DNA of 64,000 nucleotides from an uncultured archaeon (GCA_964534625.1 CAZHRF010000007.1:11170-75169), one strand, 5' to 3'. Counted from the first letter of the stretch, positions 3 to 49,303 are shown. A program made the numbers and translations. Notes: generated from the sequence alone by a model not told the origin.

Positions 3-2402
3 TCTATTATTCCAAAGACTGATTTTACGGATTTAGCTGGAAATAGTTTTTCTCTTAAATTTGAAGATTTATCTGATGATTCTACAATTGATCGTATTTT
101 AGATAATTTAATTGATCAGATGCATTCCTATTTGGAGTTTTACAAAAAACAACCCCAATACCAGAATGATGAGAAGTTTACAAATTATACAACTTGTTTT
201 TCAGTTAATTTTGAAAGAATAATGGATGGTGTTAAATTAATTAAACAGAATAAGATAATTAGGCAGTCATTTCAATTGTTAAATGAAACATTTAAACAAG
301 CAAGTTCTTACGATAGTTGGAGGGTCTTTCAACTATGCTTCATATTGATGCTTATTCCTGATATTGTTGAAAAAAAATCTAGAAGAAATATTACTGAAGT
401 TTTGCATGTACAAACGGGTGGGGGTAAGTCTGAAACTTATTTTGGATGTGTAATTTTTTCAGCCTTTTTTGATCGCTTAACTGGTAAAAATTTTGGACTA
501 ACAGCCATCACAAAGTTTCCATTGCGTATGTTATCTATTCAACAATTACAGAGAATTGCAAGAATAATGATCTTTGCTGATAAAGTCAGGAGAGATTATG
601 AAATAGACGGCGAGCCTTTTTCTGTAGGTTATTTTGTAGGTAATAATATTGACTTTCCTGGTGATAATTGTAAATTAATAAAGGAGATCAAAAACAAGCA
701 GATTAAAGGGAAGATAATCGAAATATGTCCGTTCTGCAAAACTAACAATGTAATTTTGAGTGTTTCTGAGGAAGAAATGACCATTTATCATAAATGTACA
801 GACTGCAAAGAAAAGTTTAACTTGTTTTTTATTGATAATGAGATATATAGAAAAATACCCACTTTTATTGTTTCAACAGTTGATAAGCACTCATCAATAT
901 CACGAAACAGGAGGTACAGGAATCTTATTGGAGGAAAGTTGGATAAATGTCCAAAAGGTCATGGTCTTATTCCACATGGGGATAAATGCTCATATGTAAA
1001 TGAAATAGTAAATGACCGAAAAAACAAGTGTAATGAAACTGGTGAGAGAGTAAATATTGATTTTTCTACAGCCCCTACCTTAATAATTCAAGATGAAATG
1101 CATCTTATCAAAGAAAGCTTTGGAACAATAGATTCTCATTTTGAAAGCTTAATTGAAGTAATGCAGCAAGAAATGAGTGGTTATGGAATAAAAAATATAG
1201 CCATGACTGCAACTATATCTGGTGCGAACCATCAGATAAAGCAGCTATACAATAAACAAACAAATATTTTTCCTTCAAAATCTCCTTTTGGAATGGGAGA
1301 TAATGATTTCTTTCATGAACTAATTGAAGAACATGGTAATGTAAAACTTCAAAGGATTATCCTAGGTTTAAGACCAAATGCTAGAGATAATCAATTTGCT
1401 TGTTCTTTGACACTTAGGCATCTTGCAAATTTTTATTCTGATATTGAAAATAATAGGTCTGAATTTTGTAAAAAGTACGGTTTTAATTATTCTGTGCTAG
1501 ATAAGCTTCTTGAAAGATATAAATCTGGACTTACTTATCATAACAAAAAATCAGATGTTCATACAATGGAATATTATTTACTTGATGTTGTAAACTCGCA
1601 TTTGAAAAAATCAGTTAAAGTACAAGGAAAACCATTAACTGGTGATAACTCTTTAGATGAAATTAAAGAATTAATTGAAGAAATTGAAAATGCTAATTTA
1701 TCTAAACAAAAAGACCTTATTTTTACGTTTGCTACAAGTGTCGTATCACATGGTGTTGATATTGGAAAATGGAACATAATGGAATTTCAAGGAATCCCAA
1801 GATCAACAGCAGAGTATATTCAGTCACTTAGTCGAGTGGGTAGAAAGAATCTAGGTCTAGTATTATTGTGGTTTTATGGTAATAGAGTCCGAGATGTATC
1901 ATTTTATCACAATTTTTCAAACTACCACGATATTTTGGAACATCATGTCAATAGTATTCCTATATCTAGGTGGGCAAAACTTGGTGTGGATCAAACGTTT
2001 CATTCTGTTTTTTGTGCATCAATAATCAACTTTTTTGCTGATAAATATAATCGACCACTTTATACAGTTGATGCTGTAAATGATTTGTTCAAACAAGATT
2101 CAGTAATTGAAGAATTAATTGATTTTATTAAAAAAGCATATCATGTTAATGAATCAAATCCAAAATCACATTTTTTGAATGATTATATTCCAAGAGAAGT
2201 AGAACAACGATTAAAGGCCCTCAAGACCCGTAATTTTAGTCGTAACTCAAGATACTTTTTCCCCATCGCTTTAGATTCTTTATCTAAACCCTTATATCGT
2301 ACTCAGTATGGTATGCGAGGAATACAAGATGAGCTCATAATAAAACCCAGTAGTGATGATAAAAAGTTTGTAGAAGAATATCTAAAAGGTGAGAATAAGT
2401 GA
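3..2402 (+). CDS. SF2 DExH helicase, DISARM DrmA-like; 5' end lies outside the window
   Basis: Walker A QTGGGKSE (nt 411-434), motif II DEMH (nt 1092-1103), motif VI QSLSRVGR (nt 1821-1844). CxxC...CxxC zinc-ribbon insert (CPFCKT...CTDCKE). The frame has no stop between nt 3 and the first in-window ATG at 120, so the protein probably starts upstream. Its stop overlaps the next start (GTGA, 2399-2402). Confidence 0.7.
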   Translation, partial: SIIPKTDFTDLAGNSFSLKFEDLSDDSTIDRILDNLIDQMHSYLEFYKKQPQYQNDEKFTNYTTCFSVNFERIMDGVKLIKQNKIIRQSFQLLNETFKQASSYDSWRVFQLCFILMLIPDIVEKKSRRNITEVLHVQTGGGKSETYFGCVIFSAFFDRLTGKNFGLTAITKFPLRMLSIQQLQRIARIMIFADKVRRDYEIDGEPFSVGYFVGNNIDFPGDNCKLIKEIKNKQIKGKIIEICPFCKTNNVILSVSEEEMTIYHKCTDCKEKFNLFFIDNEIYRKIPTFIVSTVDKHSSISRNRRYRNLIGGKLDKCPKGHGLIPHGDKCSYVNEIVNDRKNKCNETGERVNIDFSTAPTLIIQDEMHLIKESFGTIDSHFESLIEVMQQEMSGYGIKNIAMTATISGANHQIKQLYNKQTNIFPSKSPFGMGDNDFFHELIEEHGNVKLQRIILGLRPNARDNQFACSLTLRHLANFYSDIENNRSEFCKKYGFNYSVLDKLLERYKSGLTYHNKKSDVHTMEYYLLDVVNSHLKKSVKVQGKPLTGDNSLDEIKELIEEIENANLSKQKDLIFTFATSVVSHGVDIGKWNIMEFQGIPRSTAEYIQSLSRVGRKNLGLVLLWFYGNRVRDVSFYHNFSNYHDILEHHVNSIPISRWAKLGVDQTFHSVFCASIINFFADKYNRPLYTVDAVNDLFKQDSVIEELIDFIKKAYHVNESNPKSHFLNDYIPREVEQRLKALKTRNFSRNSRYFFPIALDSLSKPLYRTQYGMRGIQDELIIKPSSDDKKFVEEYLKGENK

Positions 2403-4234
2403 CAGAGGTAAAATTCCACTTTCCGGGTAATAGTGCTCTTTTTAGAGCAACAAAAGATCTTATATTCGTAAAAGGTAAATTAGCTTTCAAAGTCAATTAT
2501 CTCAATACAATTGACTTTGAAGAGAATGATGCTGGTAACTATAAACGAATAATTGATAGGATTTTTTATCTTATTAAAAATAATTATAATAATCGGATAG
2601 AAAAATATAATTTATCCCTTAATAAGATTGATTCCAAAGAAAATTTAGAACTTAAAAAACTCAAATTAATAACATCAAAACCAGGAGAAAGTAAAGCATC
2701 GACTTCAGGATATGCACAAGTTTTTCCTAAAACCTTTGTCTGTGATAAATGTAGTGATTTCAAAGTCGAATATAATCTTAATGATATTTCCAAAAACTGT
2801 CAAGTAACTGGATGTAGTGGTATCTACAAACAAGTATCTGTTGTTAAATTTTGTGAAAAATGTGGTCATGTAGACCAGCTTTTTTATCAGTGTCAGAATA
2901 ACAAAAAACATAGGGTAAAATTATATAGAAAAAAAGCCGATGATTTAACAACTTGGTATTTTCAATGTGCAACATGTAAGGGGAAAAAGGTTGATATTTT
3001 GGGTTTTAGATGCTTTCATGAAGACTTTGTTAGTAAAGTGAAATTATTAGATGACAAAGCTTCAAATTTTAAACCTTTAACTGTACGCGAGGGAGCAATA
3101 TTTATTCCTTCAGTTTATACAATGGTAGATTTACCTTCAAGCAACAAGATTACTGATCAAGCCCTAAATTATATTTCATTGGGTCTAGCTCAAGGTTTAA
3201 TTAAGGATGAACAAGGTAACATTCGATCCTTGGAAAGCATAAATGGGGACTATGAGCTTTATAATAGCTCTCTTGCAAGGAAAAGATTTGGAAAAGATAT
3301 GAGTGACCTTGAATGGATGAAACAGTGTAATGTGTATGAGATTGAACAAATAATTCAAGAATTGAAAGATACAGTTATAGATAGCAGAAATTTAAACTAT
3401 TTATTGGATTATTTATCATTAGCTAGTAATATATCAGAAGATCATCTTGCTCTAAATTTTTCCAACTACCTTTCCACTATTGTTGATGATAAAGAAAAGC
3501 AAATTAAAACAAAACTTTATCAAAAGATGAAAGAAGACTTAAACATTGATGAAATCACGTATATTGAAAATGTGAAGCTGTTAAACATAAATTATGGGTA
3601 TATCCGTGGAGTAAATAAATTCTATGAAGACGGCTTTAAACCACATTTTGAACCAAATTGGTCTAACAAATTTGATTCTGAAAATAATAAATTCGAAGCT
3701 TATGTTTTTCCCTTTGAAACCGAGGGAATATTAATAAGGCTTGATATGGGTTCAATTCTTAAATGGTTAGAGAAAAATAATATTAGGTCTTTCACAAAAG
3801 ATGAATTAGATAATCCTGGTTTAACCATATTAAAGCTAAATGATGATCTTATAGAGGATTTTGTTTTTCCATTATTACATACTTTATCTCATCAAATAAT
3901 TAAACTATCATCTGATTATACAGGAATAGATATTGACTCGCATAGTGAAATTATATATCCTAGAAATGGAGCCATTTTTATTTTTTCTTTGAATAATGTG
4001 AATATTGGCGGATTCAAATATTTATTCGAGAATGCAATATTTGAATTATTTAGAAAGGTAAACACTACTATAGATAGCTGTATATACGATCCCCTATGTA
4101 CTAATTTAAAGGGTGCTTGTTTTTCATGTTTATACTTATCTGAGCATGTATGTAGGTATTTTAACCAACGATTAGATCGTGATTTATATAATGCTAAAAA
4201 GCGTTTTAAGGTGGGATTTTGGGATGTCTCATAA
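2399..4234 (+). CDS. DUF1998 (MrfA-Zn-type) zinc-binding protein, DISARM DrmB-like
   Basis: C-terminal HTLSHQIIK block followed by the Cys cluster DSCIYDPLCTNLKGACFSCLYLSEHVCRYFNQRLDR (nt ~4073-4180), typical of DUF1998. Several N-terminal CxxC pairs (CDKCSD, CEKCGH, CATCKG). GTG start overlaps the helicase stop. Confidence 0.7.
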   Translation: MTEVKFHFPGNSALFRATKDLIFVKGKLAFKVNYLNTIDFEENDAGNYKRIIDRIFYLIKNNYNNRIEKYNLSLNKIDSKENLELKKLKLITSKPGESKASTSGYAQVFPKTFVCDKCSDFKVEYNLNDISKNCQVTGCSGIYKQVSVVKFCEKCGHVDQLFYQCQNNKKHRVKLYRKKADDLTTWYFQCATCKGKKVDILGFRCFHEDFVSKVKLLDDKASNFKPLTVREGAIFIPSVYTMVDLPSSNKITDQALNYISLGLAQGLIKDEQGNIRSLESINGDYELYNSSLARKRFGKDMSDLEWMKQCNVYEIEQIIQELKDTVIDSRNLNYLLDYLSLASNISEDHLALNFSNYLSTIVDDKEKQIKTKLYQKMKEDLNIDEITYIENVKLLNINYGYIRGVNKFYEDGFKPHFEPNWSNKFDSENNKFEAYVFPFETEGILIRLDMGSILKWLEKNNIRSFTKDELDNPGLTILKLNDDLIEDFVFPLLHTLSHQIIKLSSDYTGIDIDSHSEIIYPRNGAIFIFSLNNVNIGGFKYLFENAIFELFRKVNTTIDSCIYDPLCTNLKGACFSCLYLSEHVCRYFNQRLDRDLYNAKKRFKVGFWDVS

Positions 4235-5054
4235 AAGCAGATATGAAAAAATCATATTTAAAACACTGTCAAATATTCCTCCAGAGGGATTAGGAAAAAA
4301 GGAGTTATATAGGATACTAGTTGAAAAAAACATAGATAAAATTGAGTTAAATTTAGTTTTGGATTATTTAAAAATAGAAAATGTTATCTATTTTCAAAAA
4401 AATAGTGATGAGATTATTATAAATAAGAAATCAGCAAATTGGCAACAGTTTTTATCCAATTTGAAACAGAAAAAAGAACCAATTAATAATATTGGCCTCG
4501 TTTTTAATTTCCCTCAAATGGATAAGTTTGGTCTATCTTCAAAATTTAAAATTAATAATGTTGACATTGTAGTTTTATCAGATTGTTTTAAGGCCCTTTT
4601 CAAAAAGGCAAAATCTAACATTAAAATAATATCCCCTTTCATAGATATTCGTGGATTAAAACGTTTTTACAAAACATTGTCAAATAAGGCAAAAAATGGG
4701 GTCAAAATTACAATACTAGCGAGAGACCTTACAAATTCCACTAATAGTCGTAGGTTTAGAAAACTCAAAAAATTTATGGAAAATACTAGTCCTAAATTGA
4801 ATAATATGTTTAGGTTCTATGAGTACCACTATATAAATGGAAGAGGTTTAATATTAAGTAGTATTCATTCAAAGTTAATTATTGTAGATGGTAGACATTT
4901 TTATTGTGGTAGTGGAGAGATAAGAGAAAATTCCTTTACCAAGAATCTTGAAAATGGTGTTTGTCAATATAATACAGTTCATGCAAAAAATTTTGAATTA
5001 GTCTTTGATTATCTTATTTCTATATCAAATGAAATTATCTGGGGCGATTACTAA
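4224..5054 (+). CDS. Single-HKD phospholipase D-family nuclease (Nuc-like), DISARM DrmC-like
   Basis: HxK(x4)D(x6)GS motif IHSKLIIVDGRHFYCGSGE at nt 4866-4916. N-terminal winged-helix-like segment. The ORF track starts at 4179, but ATG 4224 gives only an 11-nt overlap with the upstream gene and is preferred. Its stop overlaps the next start (TAATG). Confidence 0.75.
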   Translation: MSHKSRYEKIIFKTLSNIPPEGLGKKELYRILVEKNIDKIELNLVLDYLKIENVIYFQKNSDEIIINKKSANWQQFLSNLKQKKEPINNIGLVFNFPQMDKFGLSSKFKINNVDIVVLSDCFKALFKKAKSNIKIISPFIDIRGLKRFYKTLSNKAKNGVKITILARDLTNSTNSRRFRKLKKFMENTSPKLNNMFRFYEYHYINGRGLILSSIHSKLIIVDGRHFYCGSGEIRENSFTKNLENGVCQYNTVHAKNFELVFDYLISISNEIIWGDY

Positions 5055-7684
5055 TGATGTTTATTGATAATTTGTTTATACAAAATGAAAATTGGAAAAC
5101 AGGTTCAGCATTTGAAAGACTAGAAAATATTAGTCCTTTAACTAAAGAAGTTTCACTTTCGGTATTTAAAGCATTAAAAAAAGATTTCAATGTTATTATA
5201 TCATACCCCGATAACATTTTTGCTCCTTTATCCGTAATTTGTGGTTATTATGCTGATTTATCAAGATCAAAACAAAAAGATATTATGGTTTACTCACATA
5301 ATAATAATGCAAAAATCGATGAAAACCCCCAAAAGTTTCATATTCGTAATTTTTCTAGATTAACATATTATAAAGCATTTTTATATGAATGGATAATACC
5401 ATTTGAGTATAACGAAAGTGATAATAGTCTAATCTATTGTGCGAATCTAAATTTGATAAAAAACCGCAAATATAAGCGCGAATTGAAGAAAAGGCAAATA
5501 GAAGCTATTTGTAATGATAAAATTCCTAGTATTATCTTTTCAGGGACAGATACACCATTAAATCTAACTCAAATTGACTGGTTAAAGATCGGTAATAGAA
5601 CCCATGAACACGAATTAAAATTCGATTTTGGGTTAATAGTCTTTGAAAATATGGATCGCTTAATACATAATGAGTATAATATGAATATCTTTTTGGAATG
5701 GTTGAACAATATTACAAAAAAAGAAACAAAACTTCTTTTTCATTTTTCTAATCCATATAATAAATTCATTAGAGAAATAAAGGAAAAAACCAATTCACTA
5801 CTCTATCATTGTAGTATGAGTTTTTTACATAAACAAAAGTCATATTTTGAGAATGTTTATCCTCAAACTATAAAAAGCAAGAAATTAGTTAGGAAATATA
5901 ACTTAGATTCTCCAGATACATACGAGGCTTCTAATCAAATAATTCCTTTGAAGCCAATAGCTACTTATGATTTTGATAAGCGGTTGAGAAAGTGTAGAAA
6001 TCTGTTTTATAATTTAAAAACTACATCGGACGATTTAAACAAAACCAACTATTATTCCATTAAACACTTATTGTATACCATAAAAAATATGGCTGTAAAG
6101 CCAAAAAACTATACGGTTTTATATTATGATAAATACAATGATCATTATTATTATATAACGGTAATTGAACTGCTTAGAAAACTTAAAGCTTTACTAGCGG
6201 ATAAAATTTCATTTGTAGAGTTTGCAAATGAATTTGAATCTTTGGTTGAAGATTTATCAATTAGTAAAGATATTACAGATCCGAATTTCTCAAATCCAAA
6301 AACAAAAAATAATGCATTGGTTGATTTTACCTTGAAAATAATTAAGTATAGACTTAACTTATTAGAGTTAACCGAATATCCTCATTTGAATGCATACCTA
6401 GGTAATTTTGTCGACAAAATTCAACCTGTAAAAAATGTAAAAGATTATTCAGTAATAATTGGAGTTCAAACATCACGAGAAAGAAATATGCTTTATGCTG
6501 ATTTTAATTCACTAGCGATGGCGCAAGAAGGAAATATTGATTTAATCAAACGAATTAAAATATACAGTCTGAAACAACTAACTCATAAAAGATTCATACC
6601 TCATAATGTTGATTTGTTACTTACAGGTTCATTAGCTCTAAAGAATTTTCAAGAATACTTTAGAGGTTATGATAATATATTTGTCGTAAGCTATAAAGGT
6701 AAAGATTATGATTCAATATTGGAACATATTGATATTGTTGAAAGAATTAGACCAGAAGAAAATAGACAATCTTTGAGATACATACATGAACTAAAGCAAA
6801 AGACTAAAATGAAAAAACCTGATTTCCTCGAAGAATATGATTTAAGTGAAGAAAAAATCTCTATTAGAGCTTTAATGAAAAAAGAAAGTAAGGACATTTA
6901 TGGGCGAGTGAGAGATATGGTTTTAACTTCACCAAAATATTCTAATGCAAAAGATCAAGAGGAAGAAGTCAAAGAAATTGAAACTATAACAAACAAAATT
7001 TCACAATCTAATGATGATATTGATGATTATGATATGATTATAAGTCTTGAAAATATGGATAATGGTCAAGCTAAAACTATTAAGGTAAAAGAGAATTGGT
7101 CCTTTTTATGCGTTAAGGATAAAAAGGAAATGAAACTAGAAGAAAAAATTGTTGATGAATTAACAAATGGCGACTTTCTAATATTATTAGATCAAGATGA
7201 GAAAAGGAGCTTTTTTGATTTTATAATTGATACATTTAATTTGGAGGAAGGTGTAGATGTAGAACTTGTTTCCTCTTGGAAACATATTCTTGATAGATAT
7301 GTAACAAATAATGAAGAAGATTCTTCTTTATTATATCAAGAATATGAAAAATTGTGCTGCGAACATAATTATGAGCCAAAACATATCAACACATTTAGAA
7401 ACTGGATTAAAGGGAACGTAATAGGAACTAGAGATCCAGAAGATATCTATATATTGGGTTTACTAACTGGCAATGAAAAACTTGTAGACCAATATAAGCA
7501 TATTCATAAAGAAATTGAAGAGCTTTGGAAAATTAGAAGGCTAGTTGGAAAGAAAATAAATAAAATTGTTGGAGAACTTCTTGGAGGTAGTTTCAACCAA
7601 TATGATTTAAATTATGAAGAATCTATTATTTATGATAAAATTACTATATACAGTATAACTAGTTTAGAGCATGTTGAAGAGTAG
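5054..7684 (+). CDS. Hypothetical 876-aa protein, fourth gene of the helicase/DUF1998/PLD cassette
   Basis: Long uninterrupted ORF. ATG shares one base with the PLD stop codon (TAATG, 5052-5056). No Walker A, DExx, HKD, HEPN or methyltransferase motif recognised. Acidic low-complexity stretch around nt 6950-7030. Confidence 0.6.
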   Translation: MMFIDNLFIQNENWKTGSAFERLENISPLTKEVSLSVFKALKKDFNVIISYPDNIFAPLSVICGYYADLSRSKQKDIMVYSHNNNAKIDENPQKFHIRNFSRLTYYKAFLYEWIIPFEYNESDNSLIYCANLNLIKNRKYKRELKKRQIEAICNDKIPSIIFSGTDTPLNLTQIDWLKIGNRTHEHELKFDFGLIVFENMDRLIHNEYNMNIFLEWLNNITKKETKLLFHFSNPYNKFIREIKEKTNSLLYHCSMSFLHKQKSYFENVYPQTIKSKKLVRKYNLDSPDTYEASNQIIPLKPIATYDFDKRLRKCRNLFYNLKTTSDDLNKTNYYSIKHLLYTIKNMAVKPKNYTVLYYDKYNDHYYYITVIELLRKLKALLADKISFVEFANEFESLVEDLSISKDITDPNFSNPKTKNNALVDFTLKIIKYRLNLLELTEYPHLNAYLGNFVDKIQPVKNVKDYSVIIGVQTSRERNMLYADFNSLAMAQEGNIDLIKRIKIYSLKQLTHKRFIPHNVDLLLTGSLALKNFQEYFRGYDNIFVVSYKGKDYDSILEHIDIVERIRPEENRQSLRYIHELKQKTKMKKPDFLEEYDLSEEKISIRALMKKESKDIYGRVRDMVLTSPKYSNAKDQEEEVKEIETITNKISQSNDDIDDYDMIISLENMDNGQAKTIKVKENWSFLCVKDKKEMKLEEKIVDELTNGDFLILLDQDEKRSFFDFIIDTFNLEEGVDVELVSSWKHILDRYVTNNEEDSSLLYQEYEKLCCEHNYEPKHINTFRNWIKGNVIGTRDPEDIYILGLLTGNEKLVDQYKHIHKEIEELWKIRRLVGKKINKIVGELLGGSFNQYDLNYEESIIYDKITIYSITSLEHVEE

Positions 7685-7757: not shown

Positions 7758-8140
7758 TTACATTAATTCTATACTTTTTCCAGCATTCTTCATTTTTTTC
7801 GTCTTTTCTTCTCCAAAAAATATTGCCGCTATAGCCCCTATCCCTATTTTTGCTTTTGGAAATCTTTTTTTTAATGTTTAACACTATTTCTGACATATTC
7901 TATCCAATATGTAAATAATGACATAATCCCGATTTCATCAGGTACGAAGCTATCTTCTTCTTTAAACAAAATATGATTTTCTCTTAGTTTTCCTTTTACA
8001 ATTTCTACTTCATGTCCTTTGATCTCCAACAAAGCAGCCATTTTTAATAATCCAATTGGCAAAAAGTCTTTATGATTCTTACTTTTATGAGATGTAGGAA
8101 ATTCGGGGTCTTCTAACAAATATTTCATTACACCACTCAC
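7758..8140 (-). pseudogene. Decayed paralog of the adjacent B12-binding-like radical SAM gene (N-terminal ~125 codons only)
   Basis: The 89-aa ORF (MKYLLEDPEFPTSHKSKNHKDFLPIGLLKMAALLEIKG...SLFTYWIEYV) aligns with residues 1-95 of the 437-aa gene. After the stop at 7871-7873, homology continues in the -1 frame: KKRFPKAKIGIGAIAAIFFGEEKTKK versus NKYPHSKIVVGGIAASLFGKEKTKK. That frame ends at 7758. The radical SAM core is absent. Confidence 0.7.
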
Positions 8141-8249
8141 ATAATTTATTTCTATTTTACTTCTTCTATATTATTGATAAATGAATTGTCTCACAATGGT
8201 TTATGATTTATTTCTTGAAAAATACGATGGGGGAAATATATTTACTTAC

Positions 8250-9563
8250 TCAATACAAAATACTATTATGTATTAGATGATCTTTACAATCTATCTCTTT
8301 ATAGTTTCTACTGGGATCCCAAAATGAAATTTCATGTTTATTCAAGAAATCTTCTTTTTCCATTTTTTTATCTACATCAAAATATTTTTCCTTAATTTTA
8401 TATTCTTTTTTTTGTTGTTCAAATGTTTTAATGTGAAACTCTAAATCCATTCTCACACAAATATTATGCCTTCTGACATTTTTTCTGAATTGTTTTATAA
8501 GTATATCAGACCAAATTGGTTCATGTATATAATAATCCTCCTTGGTTTGCCCAAGCTTCCTTGGATTATACTGATCATATTCCTGATCTAAGGGTCTATA
8601 TCTACAATCAGCGATTTGTACTTTCCATTCAAAGCATTTTGCACGCTTTTTTTCCATTTCATTAAAAGGAATGTCATAATTATAAAGCATGAATACTTCT
8701 AGATTCTTACTATTGTAACCCGCTTCTTCTAAGATGTCCAATTGTTTTTTAATCTGTTCTGCTTGCTTATATCCCCAATCCCATGCAATTCGTACTTGGC
8801 GAAATCCAGCTGTTTTAATTTTGGTTGCCAATTCTGGATCTTTTCTAAGCAGTCTCCCATCAAACCCACTTTGAGATTCACACCATTTTATTGTCTTATC
8901 TTCTTTTAATTGTATTAGTTCATCCAATATATCATGAATATGTGGGTTTTGTAGGAAATTGTTGTCATAGAAAACTAGTTTCTTTTTGAAAATTTTCTTT
9001 TTTATTGATTTTTCATAACTTTCTACTGGTTCAATGATCCATACTCCACAAAATTCGCATTTTCTAAAGCAACCTCTTTGTGAATGAATAATTTGGTAAT
9101 CTACTTCTGGAACGTATTTATTATACATCTGTTTCAATTTATATCGTGGTATCTCTTCTGCTTCTTTCATAATAGTCTTGAAAACAGAATCACAACCTGT
9201 AAGCTTTTTAGTCTTTTCTTTTCCAAACAAGCTTGCAGCTATTCCACCAACAACAATTTTGGAGTGCGGATATTTATTTCTGTGAACGGAAACACATTCT
9301 TTAACATAAGAGATCCAATAGGTGAATAGCGATGTTATCCAGACTTCATTTGGTATGAACTCTTTTGGAGTTTCATTATTTTGGAAAAAGTGGTCTAATG
9401 TTACATATCTATTATTTTTATCATTCATGACAATTTTTACTCTATTACCTTTTAATTCTAACATTGCTGCAAGTTTTAATAAACTTGAAGGTAAGAAGTT
9501 TTTATGTTTTTTACTCTTAGTAGGAATAGGGAAGTCTGGCTGTACGAGTAAGTATTTTTTCAT
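8250..9563 (-). CDS. Radical SAM enzyme with N-terminal B12-binding-like domain
   Basis: CxxxCxxC motif GCFRKCEFC encoded at nt 9048-9071 (Cys165/169/172). The N-terminal LPSSLLKLAAMLELKGNRVKIV pattern is typical of the Rossmann-like B12-binding domain fused to radical SAM cores. Confidence 0.75.
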   Translation of the reverse strand: MKKYLLVQPDFPIPTKSKKHKNFLPSSLLKLAAMLELKGNRVKIVMNDKNNRYVTLDHFFQNNETPKEFIPNEVWITSLFTYWISYVKECVSVHRNKYPHSKIVVGGIAASLFGKEKTKKLTGCDSVFKTIMKEAEEIPRYKLKQMYNKYVPEVDYQIIHSQRGCFRKCEFCGVWIIEPVESYEKSIKKKIFKKKLVFYDNNFLQNPHIHDILDELIQLKEDKTIKWCESQSGFDGRLLRKDPELATKIKTAGFRQVRIAWDWGYKQAEQIKKQLDILEEAGYNSKNLEVFMLYNYDIPFNEMEKKRAKCFEWKVQIADCRYRPLDQEYDQYNPRKLGQTKEDYYIHEPIWSDILIKQFRKNVRRHNICVRMDLEFHIKTFEQQKKEYKIKEKYFDVDKKMEKEDFLNKHEISFWDPSRNYKEIDCKDHLIHNSILY

Positions 9564-9737: not shown

Positions 9738-10223
9738 ATGGACTATAATGATTATAATTTCCGAAATGCAAAATCCATTTTGAAAGATAAATTAGTGTTA
9801 TCCAAAGTTGATCAAACTTTACAAAACTTGAGTAAAATATCAAGTGATGAAAGAGTCTTCACACAAATAGTCTCACATTTTGAAAATTATCATATTTGGG
9901 AAAAAAATTATTCTTTAACAGGACAGAATGAAATCAACGAAAAATATCATTTATATGACAAATTTAACAAGATAGCAATTGGTATTACAATCACAAGAAA
10001 AGAATTTGTAACTGAAACAATTCTGAAACTTATGTTAGGCTATAATGATTTAATAACAGATGTAGGCATAATTATTGTACCAAACTCACTTGAGGATGCA
10101 GAAAAACTTGCTAGTTCATACCAGGCTTCACCTACACTTGAATATTGTAAGTCTTATCTTGAAACATACAGTTCTATAGTCACCATACCTGTTTGGGTCA
10201 TAGGTTTGATTATAGAAAAGTAA
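9738..10223 (+). CDS. Hypothetical protein (161 aa), possibly a degenerate restriction-endonuclease-like fold
   Basis: ORF with its own AT-rich upstream region. The segment YDKFNKIAIGITIT...DVGIIIVP resembles the strand pattern of BglII-like nucleases, but the acidic catalytic residues are not evident. Confidence 0.35.
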   Translation: MDYNDYNFRNAKSILKDKLVLSKVDQTLQNLSKISSDERVFTQIVSHFENYHIWEKNYSLTGQNEINEKYHLYDKFNKIAIGITITRKEFVTETILKLMLGYNDLITDVGIIIVPNSLEDAEKLASSYQASPTLEYCKSYLETYSSIVTIPVWVIGLIIEK

Positions 10224-10276: not shown

Positions 10277-11128
10277 TCAAGTCTTTCTAAAGGCATATTT
10301 TCTGCCTTTTTCATAATACATTTTGGTTATATCTAAGATATTACTGGTAATATTTTTTTTGAGCTGCCATAATTTGAATTGTATTTTGTCATCATTGATA
10401 ACATAATTTACCTCAAAATGGATTAGGATAATCTCACGCAATTCACCAATTGATTTAAGATATATATAGGGTAAAACAAGCTGATGTAGACTCTGTGATT
10501 CTTTAGTTCCCCTTTTCAACTCTATTAAAACAACATATTTATCATTTTCCACTGCATGATCTATTTCAAATTGCGTTTCTTCAATAATAACAATATTGTT
10601 TCCAATTTTACATTCTCCAACTACAATGCTTTGTAGTCTTCCACATGGTTCTAGTGGTTTTCCAACACTATATCCAAGAACATTTTCTAAATAGTGTCTT
10701 AAAATCTTTAATCGTTTAAACAGAAAGAAACCATTTTCTTCGTTGTTAATCTCACTGCGCAATAATAATGACGGTTCTTTGATTATATTTGGTTTTAAGT
10801 TTAATGAATTATCTTTCTTGCAGATGGGAAGTTTTGGGAAAATAGATGGATACTTACGATTTGGTCCTGTTTTTGTTATTACACACCCTCCACTTACATG
10901 TCTGAATAACTCTAAGTCATTCTCTTTTAATATTCTCGGTAATGTTTTATATTCATAATGGGGGATCATTCTAACTGGTGATGAATTAACCGCCTTCTCC
11001 TTGAACACTTCATTAGTTATTTCAAACGTTGTAGGACCGTTTTTCATCTTTAGCCATTTTTGTATTTCTTTACTGGCAGAACTTTTATAGAAAATTTTTT
11101 CCCAATTTGTATTTTTACTCATTAACAA
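10277..11128 (-). CDS. Hypothetical protein with PD-(D/E)xK nuclease-like motif
   Basis: FEIDHAVENDKYVVLIELKRG gives a D-x10-ExK arrangement in a beta-strand context. No other recognisable domain. Confidence 0.45.
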   Translation of the reverse strand: MLMSKNTNWEKIFYKSSASKEIQKWLKMKNGPTTFEITNEVFKEKAVNSSPVRMIPHYEYKTLPRILKENDLELFRHVSGGCVITKTGPNRKYPSIFPKLPICKKDNSLNLKPNIIKEPSLLLRSEINNEENGFFLFKRLKILRHYLENVLGYSVGKPLEPCGRLQSIVVGECKIGNNIVIIEETQFEIDHAVENDKYVVLIELKRGTKESQSLHQLVLPYIYLKSIGELREIILIHFEVNYVINDDKIQFKLWQLKKNITSNILDITKMYYEKGRKYAFRKT

Positions 11129-30347: not shown

Positions 30348-31721
30348 TTAATTTTTATCTAAAATTAGTGTTTTTTCTAAATAATCTTTTATAATTATCA
30401 ACGCTTTGCAATCGTCTGAATTGTATGAAATGGCTCTTTCCAGCGATTTCTTGTCTTTGTTATAGAACCATTTTTCAAATAGAAGAATGCTTGACGCTCC
30501 ATCCATTAGCGATTCATCCCATTCAAATCCTAAATGATTGGCAACATTTTTCAAGGTATACGATGCTACTGGTAGTATAATATGACTTTTAAAGAGCTTA
30601 AATAAATCAACTGAGTTATCCAATATTTTTTGTATCTTCTCTTTAGGTATGTTATACTTTTGTGCCATTTTTTTCAAAAAATGCCTTTCTACTGGAGACC
30701 AGTGGTAAAGCACAAAATTATTGCCATTTTTGAATAAATGTTTGATAAACTTGTGATACATACTTTTTTCATCAGAGAGTTTATTGGCAATAAATGGGTG
30801 ATAAACTGTTTTTTGTTGATCTCTTGAAAAACAGCCTATTAACCACGTGAATTCATGGTTGGGTGATAATTCCATATCTACAAAATGTTCTTGTTGGACT
30901 CGTGGGAACTTAAATGGTTTTTGTATAATCGTTTTATTATCTTCTAAGGACTGGGCTTGCAAAATAAAGTATTTTATGTCCTTTTTTGATACATAGTTAG
31001 ATGTCAAAACTTGTTCATTCATTTGACTCAAGTCACGGGTGTTTTTAATCCCTTTCTCAAAAAATTCTTTTTTTACTCTTTTTCCTATTCCTGAAATAGT
31101 TGTTAAATCATCAATTTCAAAAGCTAGTTTTTTACAATATTTTTTCCACTCACAAATTTTGCAGTCTCGTGTATAAATAGGACTAGGACTTTTTTTTCCT
31201 GTTTTAATAGCAATAATTTGTTGTAAATCTTCCTTAAGTTGGTTAATTGTATCTTCCACAAGTATTTCTTTCTCTTGATCTTTGGCTGAAATAACGAAAA
31301 AATCTATTTTTTGATCTAAAACTAAACAAGTTATATATACATTAAATGTGCCTTCCATTATCATATTTCTACTCATTTTAATTTTATTTCTCTGGAAATA
31401 GGGGATGTATGTATAATTCCCATATTTGCATTTTCCCTCTTTTTTTACAAGCTTATTGATTTTTGTTATAAACTGCTTATACATAAGAATAGCTTGATAA
31501 ATTTCTTGTTTCCCTTGTTTAACCTGAGAGAGAACATACTTGAAATTCTGATGATATTGAGACATTTTCTTGTCTTGGAATTTTCTTACTCTTCTTGATT
31601 TGCTTTTTCTAATAATAGGATGTACACGAATTTCTTCAAATGGACCATGATATGTAAGATAAAGCAATAAAGGGCAATCATAATAAAGACGTACATCGTG
31701 GTGCGAGACCAATTCTAACAT
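30348..31721 (-). CDS. RecB/Cas4-like nuclease fused to an RNase H-like domain (TM0106-type architecture)
   Basis: Cys16 (CPLLLYL) plus CKICEWKKYC (CxxCx5C) gives Cas4/AddB-type Fe-S ligands. HhH segment ISGIGKRVKKEF. C-terminal YprB/RNase H-like region. Confidence 0.6.
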   Translation of the reverse strand: MLELVSHHDVRLYYDCPLLLYLTYHGPFEEIRVHPIIRKSKSRRVRKFQDKKMSQYHQNFKYVLSQVKQGKQEIYQAILMYKQFITKINKLVKKEGKCKYGNYTYIPYFQRNKIKMSRNMIMEGTFNVYITCLVLDQKIDFFVISAKDQEKEILVEDTINQLKEDLQQIIAIKTGKKSPSPIYTRDCKICEWKKYCKKLAFEIDDLTTISGIGKRVKKEFFEKGIKNTRDLSQMNEQVLTSNYVSKKDIKYFILQAQSLEDNKTIIQKPFKFPRVQQEHFVDMELSPNHEFTWLIGCFSRDQQKTVYHPFIANKLSDEKSMYHKFIKHLFKNGNNFVLYHWSPVERHFLKKMAQKYNIPKEKIQKILDNSVDLFKLFKSHIILPVASYTLKNVANHLGFEWDESLMDGASSILLFEKWFYNKDKKSLERAISYNSDDCKALIIIKDYLEKTLILDKN

Positions 31722-47716: not shown

Positions 47717-49303
47717 TTATTTCACAATTTTTCCCAAGACTAGTTTATCACTGATAATGTTCACTATTTCTATTTTTAATACTTTTTCACGTAAATCTGT
47801 TGAACTTTCGATACTTACAGCTGGACCACCGAAAAGAGGATAAGCGATATAAGTATTATCTCGTACTCTATCTTTCTCAGCAACTACCGTGTAAAATTGT
47901 TTTCCTACTAATTCCCCTTTCTTTTTCTTGTTAAAAGCAATAATAGTATTTTTTAATTTACCTCGCTCTTTTTCCATTAAATATCTATCTGAAGGAGAAG
48001 GAACATTCAACTTAGTGAAAGGTGAATTAGGAAGAGGAAGATACTTGTAAACAGTAATTTTATCTGCTATTGAAGGAAGTTTGTGCTCTATTACCTCCCT
48101 TGTTCGACGAAGAGATCTTACAGTCTCACCTGGAAGTGAATGAATAAGATAAATTTGAGGTTTTAATTCTGCATTGGATAATAAGCTGGCAGCTCTAATA
48201 ACAGATTTAGGGTCATCCGGTCTTCCTAAATCTCGACTATGTTTTTGATCAAAAGTTTCACAACCAACGCTGATAGGAGTGTTAGCTAGATATTTCCCTA
48301 GAATTTGTGCTGCTTCAGGAGTAACAAGTGAAGGTTTGACATTTTCTATAGCAATAGAACATTTGTGTGACTGAGAATCACGAATTTTTGCAAGTGTTGC
48401 AAGCAGTTTTTCAATAGCAGAAAGATTGGGTGAAGGAACAGTAGGAGAATATATGGTTTTGTTATCGCCTCGTTTATAATCTAAGAAACCTGGAGCGGAG
48501 AGAACTATACGTTTCACTCCTTGAGAAAACAATGATTCAACTTCATCTAGAATCAATTTGAGAGGACGACTTCTAGGCGGACCAAAAAGTGTAGGGACAG
48601 AACAAAATCCACAACCACTAGGTATATCTTCTGGGCATTCATCTGTAGATACGGTTTCAGGACTTTCGCAGTTACCACATTCACTACATCCACCAATTGA
48701 TTTCACGATATCTCCACGAAAATGATTTGAACACCCTCTAACTACCTCAACATAAACTCTAGAAAACCAGTAATCAGGATAATCTCGTATACCAGCTGTA
48801 TCCGGGAAAAAATGTTCTAAAGGATCAGCAGTAGAGGGATTTTTGATAGATGAAAACAAAAATTTATTCTTTATGCGTCGAGTTGTATAATATTCTGTAT
48901 TAGATAATGAAGCAAAATTAAGTTGTTTTGATAATAAATCTTGAAGAATCCACTCACCTTCACCTATAACGCCTGCATTAATATCTAAAGAGAAAAGAAG
49001 AGAAGAATCTGCAAGAATAGGACCACCAAGAATTATAGGAGCAGAAAAAGAGCGTAAGATAGCAATAACTTTTTTTACAGCGACTAAATCCACAGACATT
49101 GCACTAATTAAAAACCCATCAAAGGAAGATAAAGTGTGACTATGAGAACTATTTAATAAATCTTCAACTCGTACAATTATGGGATAGGATTGTGAGGTTT
49201 TAACTATACCGGCTAAAAGCTTGGGTCCAGCTCCAATAACATCCCGGGTAAACAGACGATGACCATCGTTAGCAGCAAGTGCATCAATAATAAGGATATT
49301 CAC
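47717..49303 (-). CDS. Radical SAM-like protein with flavodoxin/B12-like N-domain, Cys-rich insert and TRAM-like C-terminus
   Basis: VEVVRGC...(41 residues incl. CSECGNC, EC)...GCGFCSVPTLFG...SRPLKLILDEVESL resembles a radical SAM core whose CxxxCxxC is interrupted. The C-terminal beta-rich GKQFYTVVAEKD...VLKIEIVNII segment resembles TRAM. Confidence 0.5.
   Translation of the reverse strand: MNILIIDALAANDGHRLFTRDVIGAGPKLLAGIVKTSQSYPIIVRVEDLLNSSHSHTLSSFDGFLISAMSVDLVAVKKVIAILRSFSAPIILGGPILADSSLLFSLDINAGVIGEGEWILQDLLSKQLNFASLSNTEYYTTRRIKNKFLFSSIKNPSTADPLEHFFPDTAGIRDYPDYWFSRVYVEVVRGCSNHFRGDIVKSIGGCSECGNCESPETVSTDECPEDIPSGCGFCSVPTLFGPPRSRPLKLILDEVESLFSQGVKRIVLSAPGFLDYKRGDNKTIYSPTVPSPNLSAIEKLLATLAKIRDSQSHKCSIAIENVKPSLVTPEAAQILGKYLANTPISVGCETFDQKHSRDLGRPDDPKSVIRAASLLSNAELKPQIYLIHSLPGETVRSLRRTREVIEHKLPSIADKITVYKYLPLPNSPFTKLNVPSPSDRYLMEKERGKLKNTIIAFNKKKKGELVGKQFYTVVAEKDRVRDNTYIAYPLFGGPAVSIESSTDLREKVLKIEIVNIISDKLVLGKIVK

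Follow-up and report, generated by a model that had tools for sequence, protein, structure and literature searches.

A deeply diverged DrmE with a predicted helicase fold lacking ATPase motifs, from a DISARM class-2-like cassette associated with radical SAM genes

DISARM systems are defined by their link to methylation. As delimited in PADLOC, class 2 DISARM consists of DrmA, DrmB, DrmC and DrmE along with DrmMII, and its DrmE is reportedly that of the Bacillus paralicheniformis system described by Ofir et al. in 2018; class 1 has the SNF2 helicase DrmD. DrmA and DrmB form a helicase complex that is triggered by 5' overhangs and is sensitive to methylation (PMC9142583). One preprint, which cites Ofir 2018, describes drmE as a gene of undefined function that is essential for class 2 DISARM defence, and drmE-dependent phage resistance is reported there for the Bacillus system alone (bioRxiv 10.1101/2021.12.28.474362). 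We analyzed a stretch of 64,000 nucleotides from an uncultured archaeon (GCA_964534625.1, CAZHRF010000007.1:11170-75169; hereafter the window, with positions counted from its first letter) and in it an open reading frame (ORF) at 5054-7684 on the + strand, encoding 876 amino acids. An initial annotation made from the sequence alone had given these limits correctly and had called the ORF an ORFan and a candidate new component of a defence cassette. We found that it almost certainly encodes a full-length, deeply diverged DrmE belonging to a deep and fast-evolving branch of this family.

The identification is based on profile matches and on homology from end to end. Pfam DrmE_C (PF24957) matched residues 684-839 of the protein with 40.3 bits against a gathering score of 27, and two relatives, P0002 and P0003, likewise matched this domain. 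The NCBIfam model DrmE_fam (NF038316) aligned with the C-terminal third only (E 1.4e-20, 73.2 bits against a cut-off of 80), and the PADLOC (2.0) models gave no DrmE match. A word-index search, carried out with the ORF and also with an alignment of 46 sequences, found only P0002 and P0003, whose identities were 34% and 26%. When we searched exhaustively with HMMER, using a three-sequence profile, 418 cluster representatives were returned at E<=1e-3, including 76 at E<=1e-30, and many of these homologues were full-length proteins of 800-890 aa. Among 58 sampled homologues, 48 matched DrmE_fam and 28 matched the DISARM_DrmE equivalog model. We then used two profiles, A4 with 46 close full-length homologues and A5 with 21 distant ones; all A5 proteins matched DrmE_fam and 20 of the 21 matched DISARM_DrmE. 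hhalign aligned A4 with A5 over 724 columns (26-849/854 against 18-789/808) with a probability of 100% and an E-value of 5e-56. The ORF is only 13-16% identical to canonical DrmE members, and intermediates form a continuous series between the two. A sequence search of the PDB with the DrmE profile found nothing, and a scan of genome contigs yielded a single 3.4-kb contig from an 'uncultured archaeon' metagenome-assembled genome, without useful context.

These data contradict the ORFan label, given the DrmE_C and DrmE_fam matches and the 418 homologous cluster representatives. The idea of a new component is refuted by the confident profile match to DrmE, an outcome that the initial annotation had itself named as fatal to it. 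A protein unrelated to described DISARM components would explain why PADLOC 2.0 has no DrmE match, why the word index holds two relatives only and why the NCBIfam score is below its cut-off; a DrmE_C match above threshold, the end-to-end hhalign homology and the continuous intermediates leave this explanation a negligible probability. Because of the sub-cut-off DrmE_fam score and the lack of a PADLOC DrmE match, routine pipelines would leave the gene unnamed and orphan-like. Compared with DrmE of class 2 DISARM (NF038323/NF038316, PF24957), the protein is homologous over its full length and has the same DrmE_C domain with invariant tryptophans; both lack ATPase motifs, and both always occur with drmA and drmB and usually with drmC. 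The ORF differs from canonical DrmE in carrying its own FENxDR and HFSNP signature, in being encoded last where the canonical gene is first (locus L027), and in having as its partner a radical S-adenosylmethionine (SAM) gene in place of the C5 methylase DrmMII.

All four class 2 core genes, drmA, drmB, drmC and drmE, are present in one operon:

1-2402, + strand: drmA, 3' two-thirds only (PADLOC DrmA E 6e-113; NCBIfam DISARM_DrmAS E 1e-87).
2399-4234, + strand: drmB, 611 aa, DUF1998/OB-CON family partner of DrmA (PADLOC DrmB E 1e-27; NCBIfam DrmB_fam E 9e-20).
4224-5054, + strand: drmC, phospholipase D (PLD)-family nuclease, 276 aa as called (Pfam PLDc_2 E 7.5e-14; PADLOC DrmC models).
5054-7684, + strand: drmE, 876 aa, divergent DrmE-family protein with a C-terminal DrmE_C domain.

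The upstream triad reported earlier thus consists of DrmA, DrmB and DrmC, as named by PADLOC and NCBIfam, with the reservation that drmA is incomplete in the window, whose edge leaves 355 N-terminal residues outside. We obtained the sequence upstream of the window from a 24.7-kb metagenomic contig with an identical locus (L001), on which the complete drmA (4002-7349) encodes 1115 aa. DrmA is a DExH helicase of superfamily 2 (SF2) with intact motifs (GGGKS at aa 455, DEMH at aa 680), and the HKD motif of DrmC is intact as well (HSKLIIVD). The start of drmB (2399) overlaps the drmA stop (2402) by 4 nt. The 5' end of drmC overlaps the 3' end of drmB, the called start being at 4224 (gene call on L001) and the longest ORF beginning at 4179. 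The drmC stop codon TAA (5052-5054) and the drmE ATG (5054-5056) share one A (cTAATGatg), exactly as the initial annotation had noted, and its proposal that drmE is co-expressed with the upstream genes gains support from this overlap and from a gene order that is kept in about 20 loci. The metagenome of origin, sampled from a microbial mat, consists of DNA runs only. The G+C content is 27% at about 3.5-8 kb, the region of the cassette, compared with 33-35% around 13-16 kb, and the AT-rich cassette is consistent with a horizontally acquired island. We looked for a tRNA, an Rfam family and an intrinsic terminator near drmE and found none of them.

We collected homologous loci by looking up the encoding contigs and by one metagenome scan (16 sequences), and annotated them with phmmer and hidden Markov models (HMMs). 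The order drmA-drmB-(drmC)-drmE, with drmE last, was found in every locus of the branch, about 20 in number (L004-L026, L037), and no homologue away from drmAB was seen among these loci. In a canonical locus (L027), the genes stand in the standard class 2 order, drmE-drmA-drmB-drmC-vsr-C5 methylase (PF00145). The earlier suggestion that the ORF fills the slot of DrmE or DrmD, at the 3' end of the operon, was accordingly right as regards DrmE. The identity of DrmE to the window protein is 23-27% in most loci and 34-40% in the closest two (L003, L005). Between lineages, identity is 40-50% for DrmA, 34-48% for DrmB, 30-47% for DrmC and 47-56% for the radical SAM protein; no other component of the cassette evolves as fast as DrmE. 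Several lineages lack drmC (L006-L008, L018, L019, L021, L026); because it is absent from many cassettes, the PLD nuclease appears to be optional in this DrmE branch. One locus (L005) encodes a second PLD protein with a DpnI_C domain, of methyl-DNA-binding type, 3' of drmE.

We modelled DrmE with AlphaFold2 on the 46-sequence alignment and obtained a mean predicted local distance difference test score (pLDDT) of 84.6 and a predicted template modelling score (pTM) of 0.84. The top Foldseek matches in the PDB were all SF2 helicases with a probability of 1.00. They included C. elegans DRH1 (E 1.2e-5), LGP2, MDA5 and RIG-I, the helicase domain of Pyrococcus Hef (1wp9, target TM-score 0.44) and the SNF2 remodellers DDM1, Snf2h and Ino80 (target TM-scores 0.42-0.47). 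Foldseek against predicted viral structures gave SF2 and SNF2 helicases too. Two RecA-like lobes are present in the model, which is divided as follows:

5054-5953, + strand: RecA1-like lobe, about aa 1-300, placed from the secondary structure of the model, with approximate boundaries.
5204-5215, + strand: motif I position, the loop YPDN (aa 51-54), without a lysine or a glycine-rich loop.
5642-5659, + strand: motif II position, FENMDR (aa 197-202).
5738-5755, + strand: motif III position, FHFSNP (aa 229-234).
5966-6433, + strand: helical insertion between the lobes, about aa 305-460, with Hef/RIG-I-like topology in the model and by Foldseek.
6446-6733, + strand: small RecA2-like lobe of the model, about aa 465-560.
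About aa 560-660, + strand: long helices of the model, with an acidic stretch at their end.
6950-7033, + strand: acidic stretch, aa 633-660, in which a long helix ends and where model confidence is lower; the sequence DQEEEVKEIETITNKISQSNDDIDDYD covers aa 633-659 (nt 6950-7030).
7034-7681, + strand: C-terminal module, equivalent to Pfam DrmE_C, with a beta subdomain and a helical domain.

The hydrophobic strands VIISYPDNIFAPL (aa 47-59) and GLIVFENMDRLI (aa 193-204), which had been pointed out earlier at the places where helicase motifs I and II would sit, are present, and each is modelled as a beta-strand followed by a loop. The acidic linker placed at nt ~6950-7030 is likewise there, and the helical C-terminal region is seen in the model. 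Among the 46 close homologues, P52 is conserved in 96%, E198 in 100%, N199 in 91%, D201 in 83% and H230 in 96%. K418 in the helical insertion is near-invariant (98%), and the RecA2-like lobe has conserved E476, LxLPG (G525) and YxG (Y547, G549), without the arginine finger of motif VI. In the C-terminal module, the model places a five-stranded beta subdomain at aa 661-712 and a helical domain at aa 720-876, with two family-invariant tryptophans, W742 and W784; the C-terminal 222 residues modelled alone gave a pLDDT of 92.7. We rejected a fold assignment for DrmE_C, the candidates being a Hint/intein-like beta subdomain of 53 columns (E 0.04) and, for part of the helical domain, a weakly similar cI-type helix-turn-helix (E ~1). 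An intein inside the ORF was also rejected: the Pfam Intein_splicing match (E 0.0055) is well below threshold, and Foldseek aligns the 53-column beta subdomain only.

The motifs of an active helicase are missing from this fold. A regular-expression scan of the ORF found no Walker A, GK[ST], DExx, HxK(4)D, RxxxxH, motif VI or FxGxG, which bears out the earlier statement that Walker A, DExx, HKD, HEPN and SAM-binding motifs are absent. Walker A occurs in none of the 21 canonical DrmE proteins and in one of the 46 close homologues; Walker A, DExx and the motif VI arginine finger are absent together from 45/46 close and 21/21 canonical homologues. DrmA and DrmC of the same operon keep their catalytic motifs, whereas DrmE does not. 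The model confidence, the SF2 matches and the missing ATPase motifs support the view, already put forward from the sequence, of an inactivated RecA-like fold. As modelled, DrmE is an SF2 helicase fold without ATPase motifs, and this holds for the whole family including canonical DrmE.

The best structural matches, Hef and the helicase cores of the RIG-I-like receptor/Dicer type, have in common with DrmE the succession of RecA1, helical insertion and RecA2; in contrast to DrmE they are active archaeal and eukaryotic ATPases stimulated by nucleic acids. They share 9-11% sequence identity with DrmE, and their C-terminal domains bear no relation to its own. With DrmD of class 1 DISARM, an SNF2 helicase, the protein shares the two-lobed SF2 fold (Foldseek matches to DDM1, Snf2h, Ino80 and viral SNF2 proteins) and the position of an accessory fourth protein beside DrmABC. 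The full ATPase motifs of DrmD are all missing from DrmE, and there is no detectable sequence similarity between the two (no PADLOC DrmD match).

We propose that DrmE would hydrolyse no ATP and would act as a stoichiometric, non-catalytic subunit that binds DNA or a partner, an ATPase-dead counterpart of DrmD. It would use its remodelled inter-lobe cleft, with the conserved P52, FENxDR, HFSNP, K418 and YxG, together with the DrmE_C domain and its invariant W742 and W784. In this capacity it would bring the DrmA-DrmB motor onto foreign DNA, or license it there, together with DrmC as an optional nuclease. We advance the role of DrmE as a licensing subunit of DrmAB tentatively, at somewhat less than even odds. 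DrmE travels with DrmAB in every locus, whatever the modifier.

DrmE might conversely be an active motor, in which FENxDR and HFSNP form a nucleotide site of a non-P-loop kind and DNA is translocated or remodelled as by the SNF2 protein DrmD. The strongest conservation does lie at the former motifs II and III, with E198 invariant and N199, D201 and H230 at 83-96%, and the overall SF2 fold is retained. The YPDN loop at the motif I site, however, has neither lysine nor glycine-rich loop, the arginine finger is missing, and FENxDR is reduced in canonical DrmE, where a hydrophobic strand with a D at its end is all that is left at the motif II site. Because the motif has decayed there, FENxDR is not a family-wide catalytic site, and we consider an active motor very unlikely. 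The rapid evolution of DrmE would fit yet another role, that of a sensor or decoy for phage proteins, an arms-race interface more than a DNA-binding subunit. Its fold is nevertheless that of nucleic-acid-binding SF2 proteins, and conservation falls on residues of the internal cleft and not on surface patches, which leaves the sensor or decoy role a slim chance.

No DrmMII C5-cytosine methyltransferase was found within the window and 5 kb upstream on L001; across the same region, no ORF of at least 150 aa carries an amino-methylase or C5-methylase motif ([DNS]PP[YFW], PCQxxS), and the neighbouring genes have no methylase Pfam match; elsewhere in the genome a methylase may be encoded. Because no DrmMII was found, the locus falls outside the class 2 definition, and the system is best described as a new DISARM variant, of which DrmE itself is a known component. 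In place of a methylase we found members of one radical SAM family on both sides of the cassette:

7761-8170, - strand: decayed third radical SAM paralogue, frameshifted, with the N-terminal ~116 residues only (hmmsearch with the family HMM).
8250-9563, - strand: B12-binding-domain/radical SAM gene, 437 aa, convergent with drmE (weak Pfam B12-binding and Radical_SAM matches, in the right order).
L001 2198-3595, outside the window, - strand: paralogue of 465 aa, 59% identical, divergent from and upstream of drmA.

In both intact proteins, a CxxxCxxC radical SAM motif follows an N-terminal B12-binding-like domain; in the 437-aa protein the motif reads CFRKCEFC (aa 165-172), and C165, C169 and C172 are invariant in the family alignment. 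The Pfam B12-binding match is below threshold in the window copy and above it (50.3 bits) in the homologue from L006. The remnant separates the stop codon of drmE from the intact 437-aa gene and matches the family HMM in two pieces (7874-8170 to positions 2-87, E 2.4e-31; 7761-7877 to positions 89-116, E 2e-4); an '89-aa ORF' at 7871-8140 belongs to it. Like the class B radical SAM enzymes BchE, HpnR and PhpK, the protein combines an N-terminal B12-binding-like domain with a CxxxCxxC core; unlike theirs, its flanking genes are those of defence cassettes and not of pathways for cofactors, lipids or antibiotics. The named B12/radical SAM families show weak similarity to it, with BchE the best (E 3.9e-10), and no characterised relative was found.

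The association recurs across the branch. The radical SAM family adjoins the DrmAB(C)E cassette in 11 of the 12 lineages with enough flanking sequence, and no DNA-methylase motif was seen in the cassettes of those 11. In nine lineages (L006/7/9, L010, L011, L012, L013, L014, L015) the gene lies directly 3' of drmE in the same orientation, and in many cases it overlaps the drmE stop. It lies upstream of the cassette in L004, in L005 and in a more distant sub-branch (L008 and L037), and among the 12 lineages it is absent from that of L018/L021 only; in L021, an N6/N4 methylase is encoded at a distance of 3.6 kb. A D12-class, Dam-like methylase (MethyltransfD12; 4207-5037) takes the radical SAM slot in L036, directly 3' of a DrmE of intermediate divergence. 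This L036 variant has an adenine methylase, of a class other than DrmMI or DrmMII. PADLOC gave no match for the radical SAM gene, and a PDB sequence search with the radical SAM profile found no solved relative. In the literature that we searched, there was no link of radical SAM/B12 enzymes to DISARM, defence islands, anti-phage activity or Pbe; a recent survey of the YprA family mentions "many uncharacterized DISARM-like classes", and the radical SAM variant is not described there.

The same enzyme is found in cassettes of other kinds. The family has 2,819 database matches at E<=1e-10 and shows about 50% identity across Kosmotogaceae, Koleobacter, Nitrospirota, Tissierellaceae, Methanomicrobia, Methanophagales and Thermoplasmata; for one of the hosts, Koleobacter methoxysyntrophicus, a complete genome sequence exists. 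A member is the last gene of PbeA-PbeB-PbeC-PbeD-like operons (L028-L030), in which PADLOC identified PbeA (5e-235) and PbeC (3e-178) and which include a gene of 141-145 aa with the dnd-associated domain PF27807. It is also the terminal gene of small SNF2 cassettes (L031, L032, L034), and in L033 it ends a cassette of a GHKL-ATPase and a 1436-aa PbeA/SNF2 fusion. With the HMM derived from DISARM-linked proteins, the non-DISARM members scored 677-691 bits, the same as the DISARM-linked ones. On these scores, one orthologous radical SAM enzyme is reused across chassis. PbeABCD (CxC-ABC ATPase/DndE; Xiong 2019, PMC10853773) is thus a second defence chassis for this radical SAM enzyme, which is its last gene in L028-L030, and it lacks DrmA, DrmB and DrmE; this comparison concerns the radical SAM partner and not the ORF. 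The known partners of PbeABCD (CxC-ABC) systems are genes for phosphorothioation and, for some variants, cytosine methylases (PMC10853773). In two unrelated chassis, the radical SAM gene thus stands where a DNA-modifying enzyme otherwise sits. Separately, GHKL/MORC-like ATPase genes (HATPase_c_3) head two of the radical-SAM-containing cassettes, one of DrmABE type (L008, 812-2716) and one of SNF2 type (L033, 2477-4045).

The self-marking partner of this lineage would, in our proposal, be the adjacent B12-binding-domain radical SAM enzyme and not a DNA methyltransferase. That this enzyme is the modifier supplying the self-mark is possible, and we would bet slightly against it; alternatively, the radical SAM enzyme may be an effector on foreign DNA, a maturase of a cassette protein or a nucleotide-modifying enzyme. 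The gene arrangement also raises the question of whether DrmE belongs to the modification side, as an adaptor that loads DNA onto the adjacent modifier (radical SAM enzyme, Dam-like or C5 methylase), and is no regulator of DrmAB at all. The radical SAM gene directly 3' of drmE in nine lineages, often overlapping, and the D12-class methylase directly 3' of drmE in L036 would both fit such an adaptor. DrmAB, however, is the constant companion of DrmE, and the modifier differs between loci or is not encoded close by (L018/L021); cassettes without DrmE have this radical SAM enzyme too, and canonical drmE stands at the end of the operon opposite the methylase. We consider the adaptor role unlikely.

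We return to DrmE as a licensing subunit. Taken jointly with the licensing mechanism and the radical SAM self-mark, the reading that drmE, as fourth gene, ends a translationally coupled drmA-drmB-drmC-drmE operon in a DISARM class-2-like cassette has in our estimate a probability of roughly 0.6. Several points weigh against it. The DrmE_fam score of 73.2 lies just below the family cut-off of 80, and PADLOC sees no DrmE. The C-terminal model has no significant or informative neighbour in the PDB by Foldseek, and the domain boundaries are taken from a predicted model. The conserved E198, N199, D201, R202, H230, S232 and N233 could support an unorthodox nucleotide-dependent activity, and the mechanistic part is an inference. 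A wider formulation would be that of a previously undescribed DISARM variant in which a radical SAM enzyme replaces the methyltransferase, as a portable module for the modification slot shared by DrmAB(C)E, PbeABCD/CxC-ABC and at least two SNF2 cassettes of anaerobes, with DrmE linking the mark to the DrmAB motor; we hold this formulation as a working proposal that may well fail, its odds being a little worse than even.

Further genes of the window were annotated beyond the radical SAM gene:

9738-10223, + strand: short (161 aa) restriction endonuclease of the BglII family (Pfam 34.9 bits against a gathering score of 26).
10277-11128, - strand: DUF6997/DUF6996 protein with a faint NERD-nuclease match, beside the BglII-like gene.
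30348-31721, - strand: putative RecB-like nuclease of the TM0106 family (NCBIfam TIGR03491, 258 bits), distant from the cassette and with no sign of linkage to it.
47717-49303, - strand: MJ_1487-like B12-binding/radical SAM protein of 528 aa, outside the cassette-associated family (no match to the family HMM).

The BglII-like gene is divergent from the 437-aa radical SAM gene and has no adjoining methylase. We rejected it as a conserved partner of the radical SAM enzyme, no homologue having been found in any other locus.

For the DrmE family, which is essential in class 2 DISARM, the result on the ORF is a correction that adds a deep branch and a structural model. The ATPase-dead SF2 nature of the protein suggests the hypothesis that DrmE is an inactive counterpart of DrmD that licenses DrmAB. 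The ORF alone is of modest interest, and what makes the locus more interesting is its association with radical SAM genes. This association poses a new question, namely whether anaerobes tell self from foreign DNA by radical SAM chemistry. Should the radical SAM enzyme mark host DNA by radical chemistry, for example by C-methylation of a base, the self-mark would be of a new epigenetic kind; should foreign DNA be its target of attack, the enzyme would represent a new type of effector.

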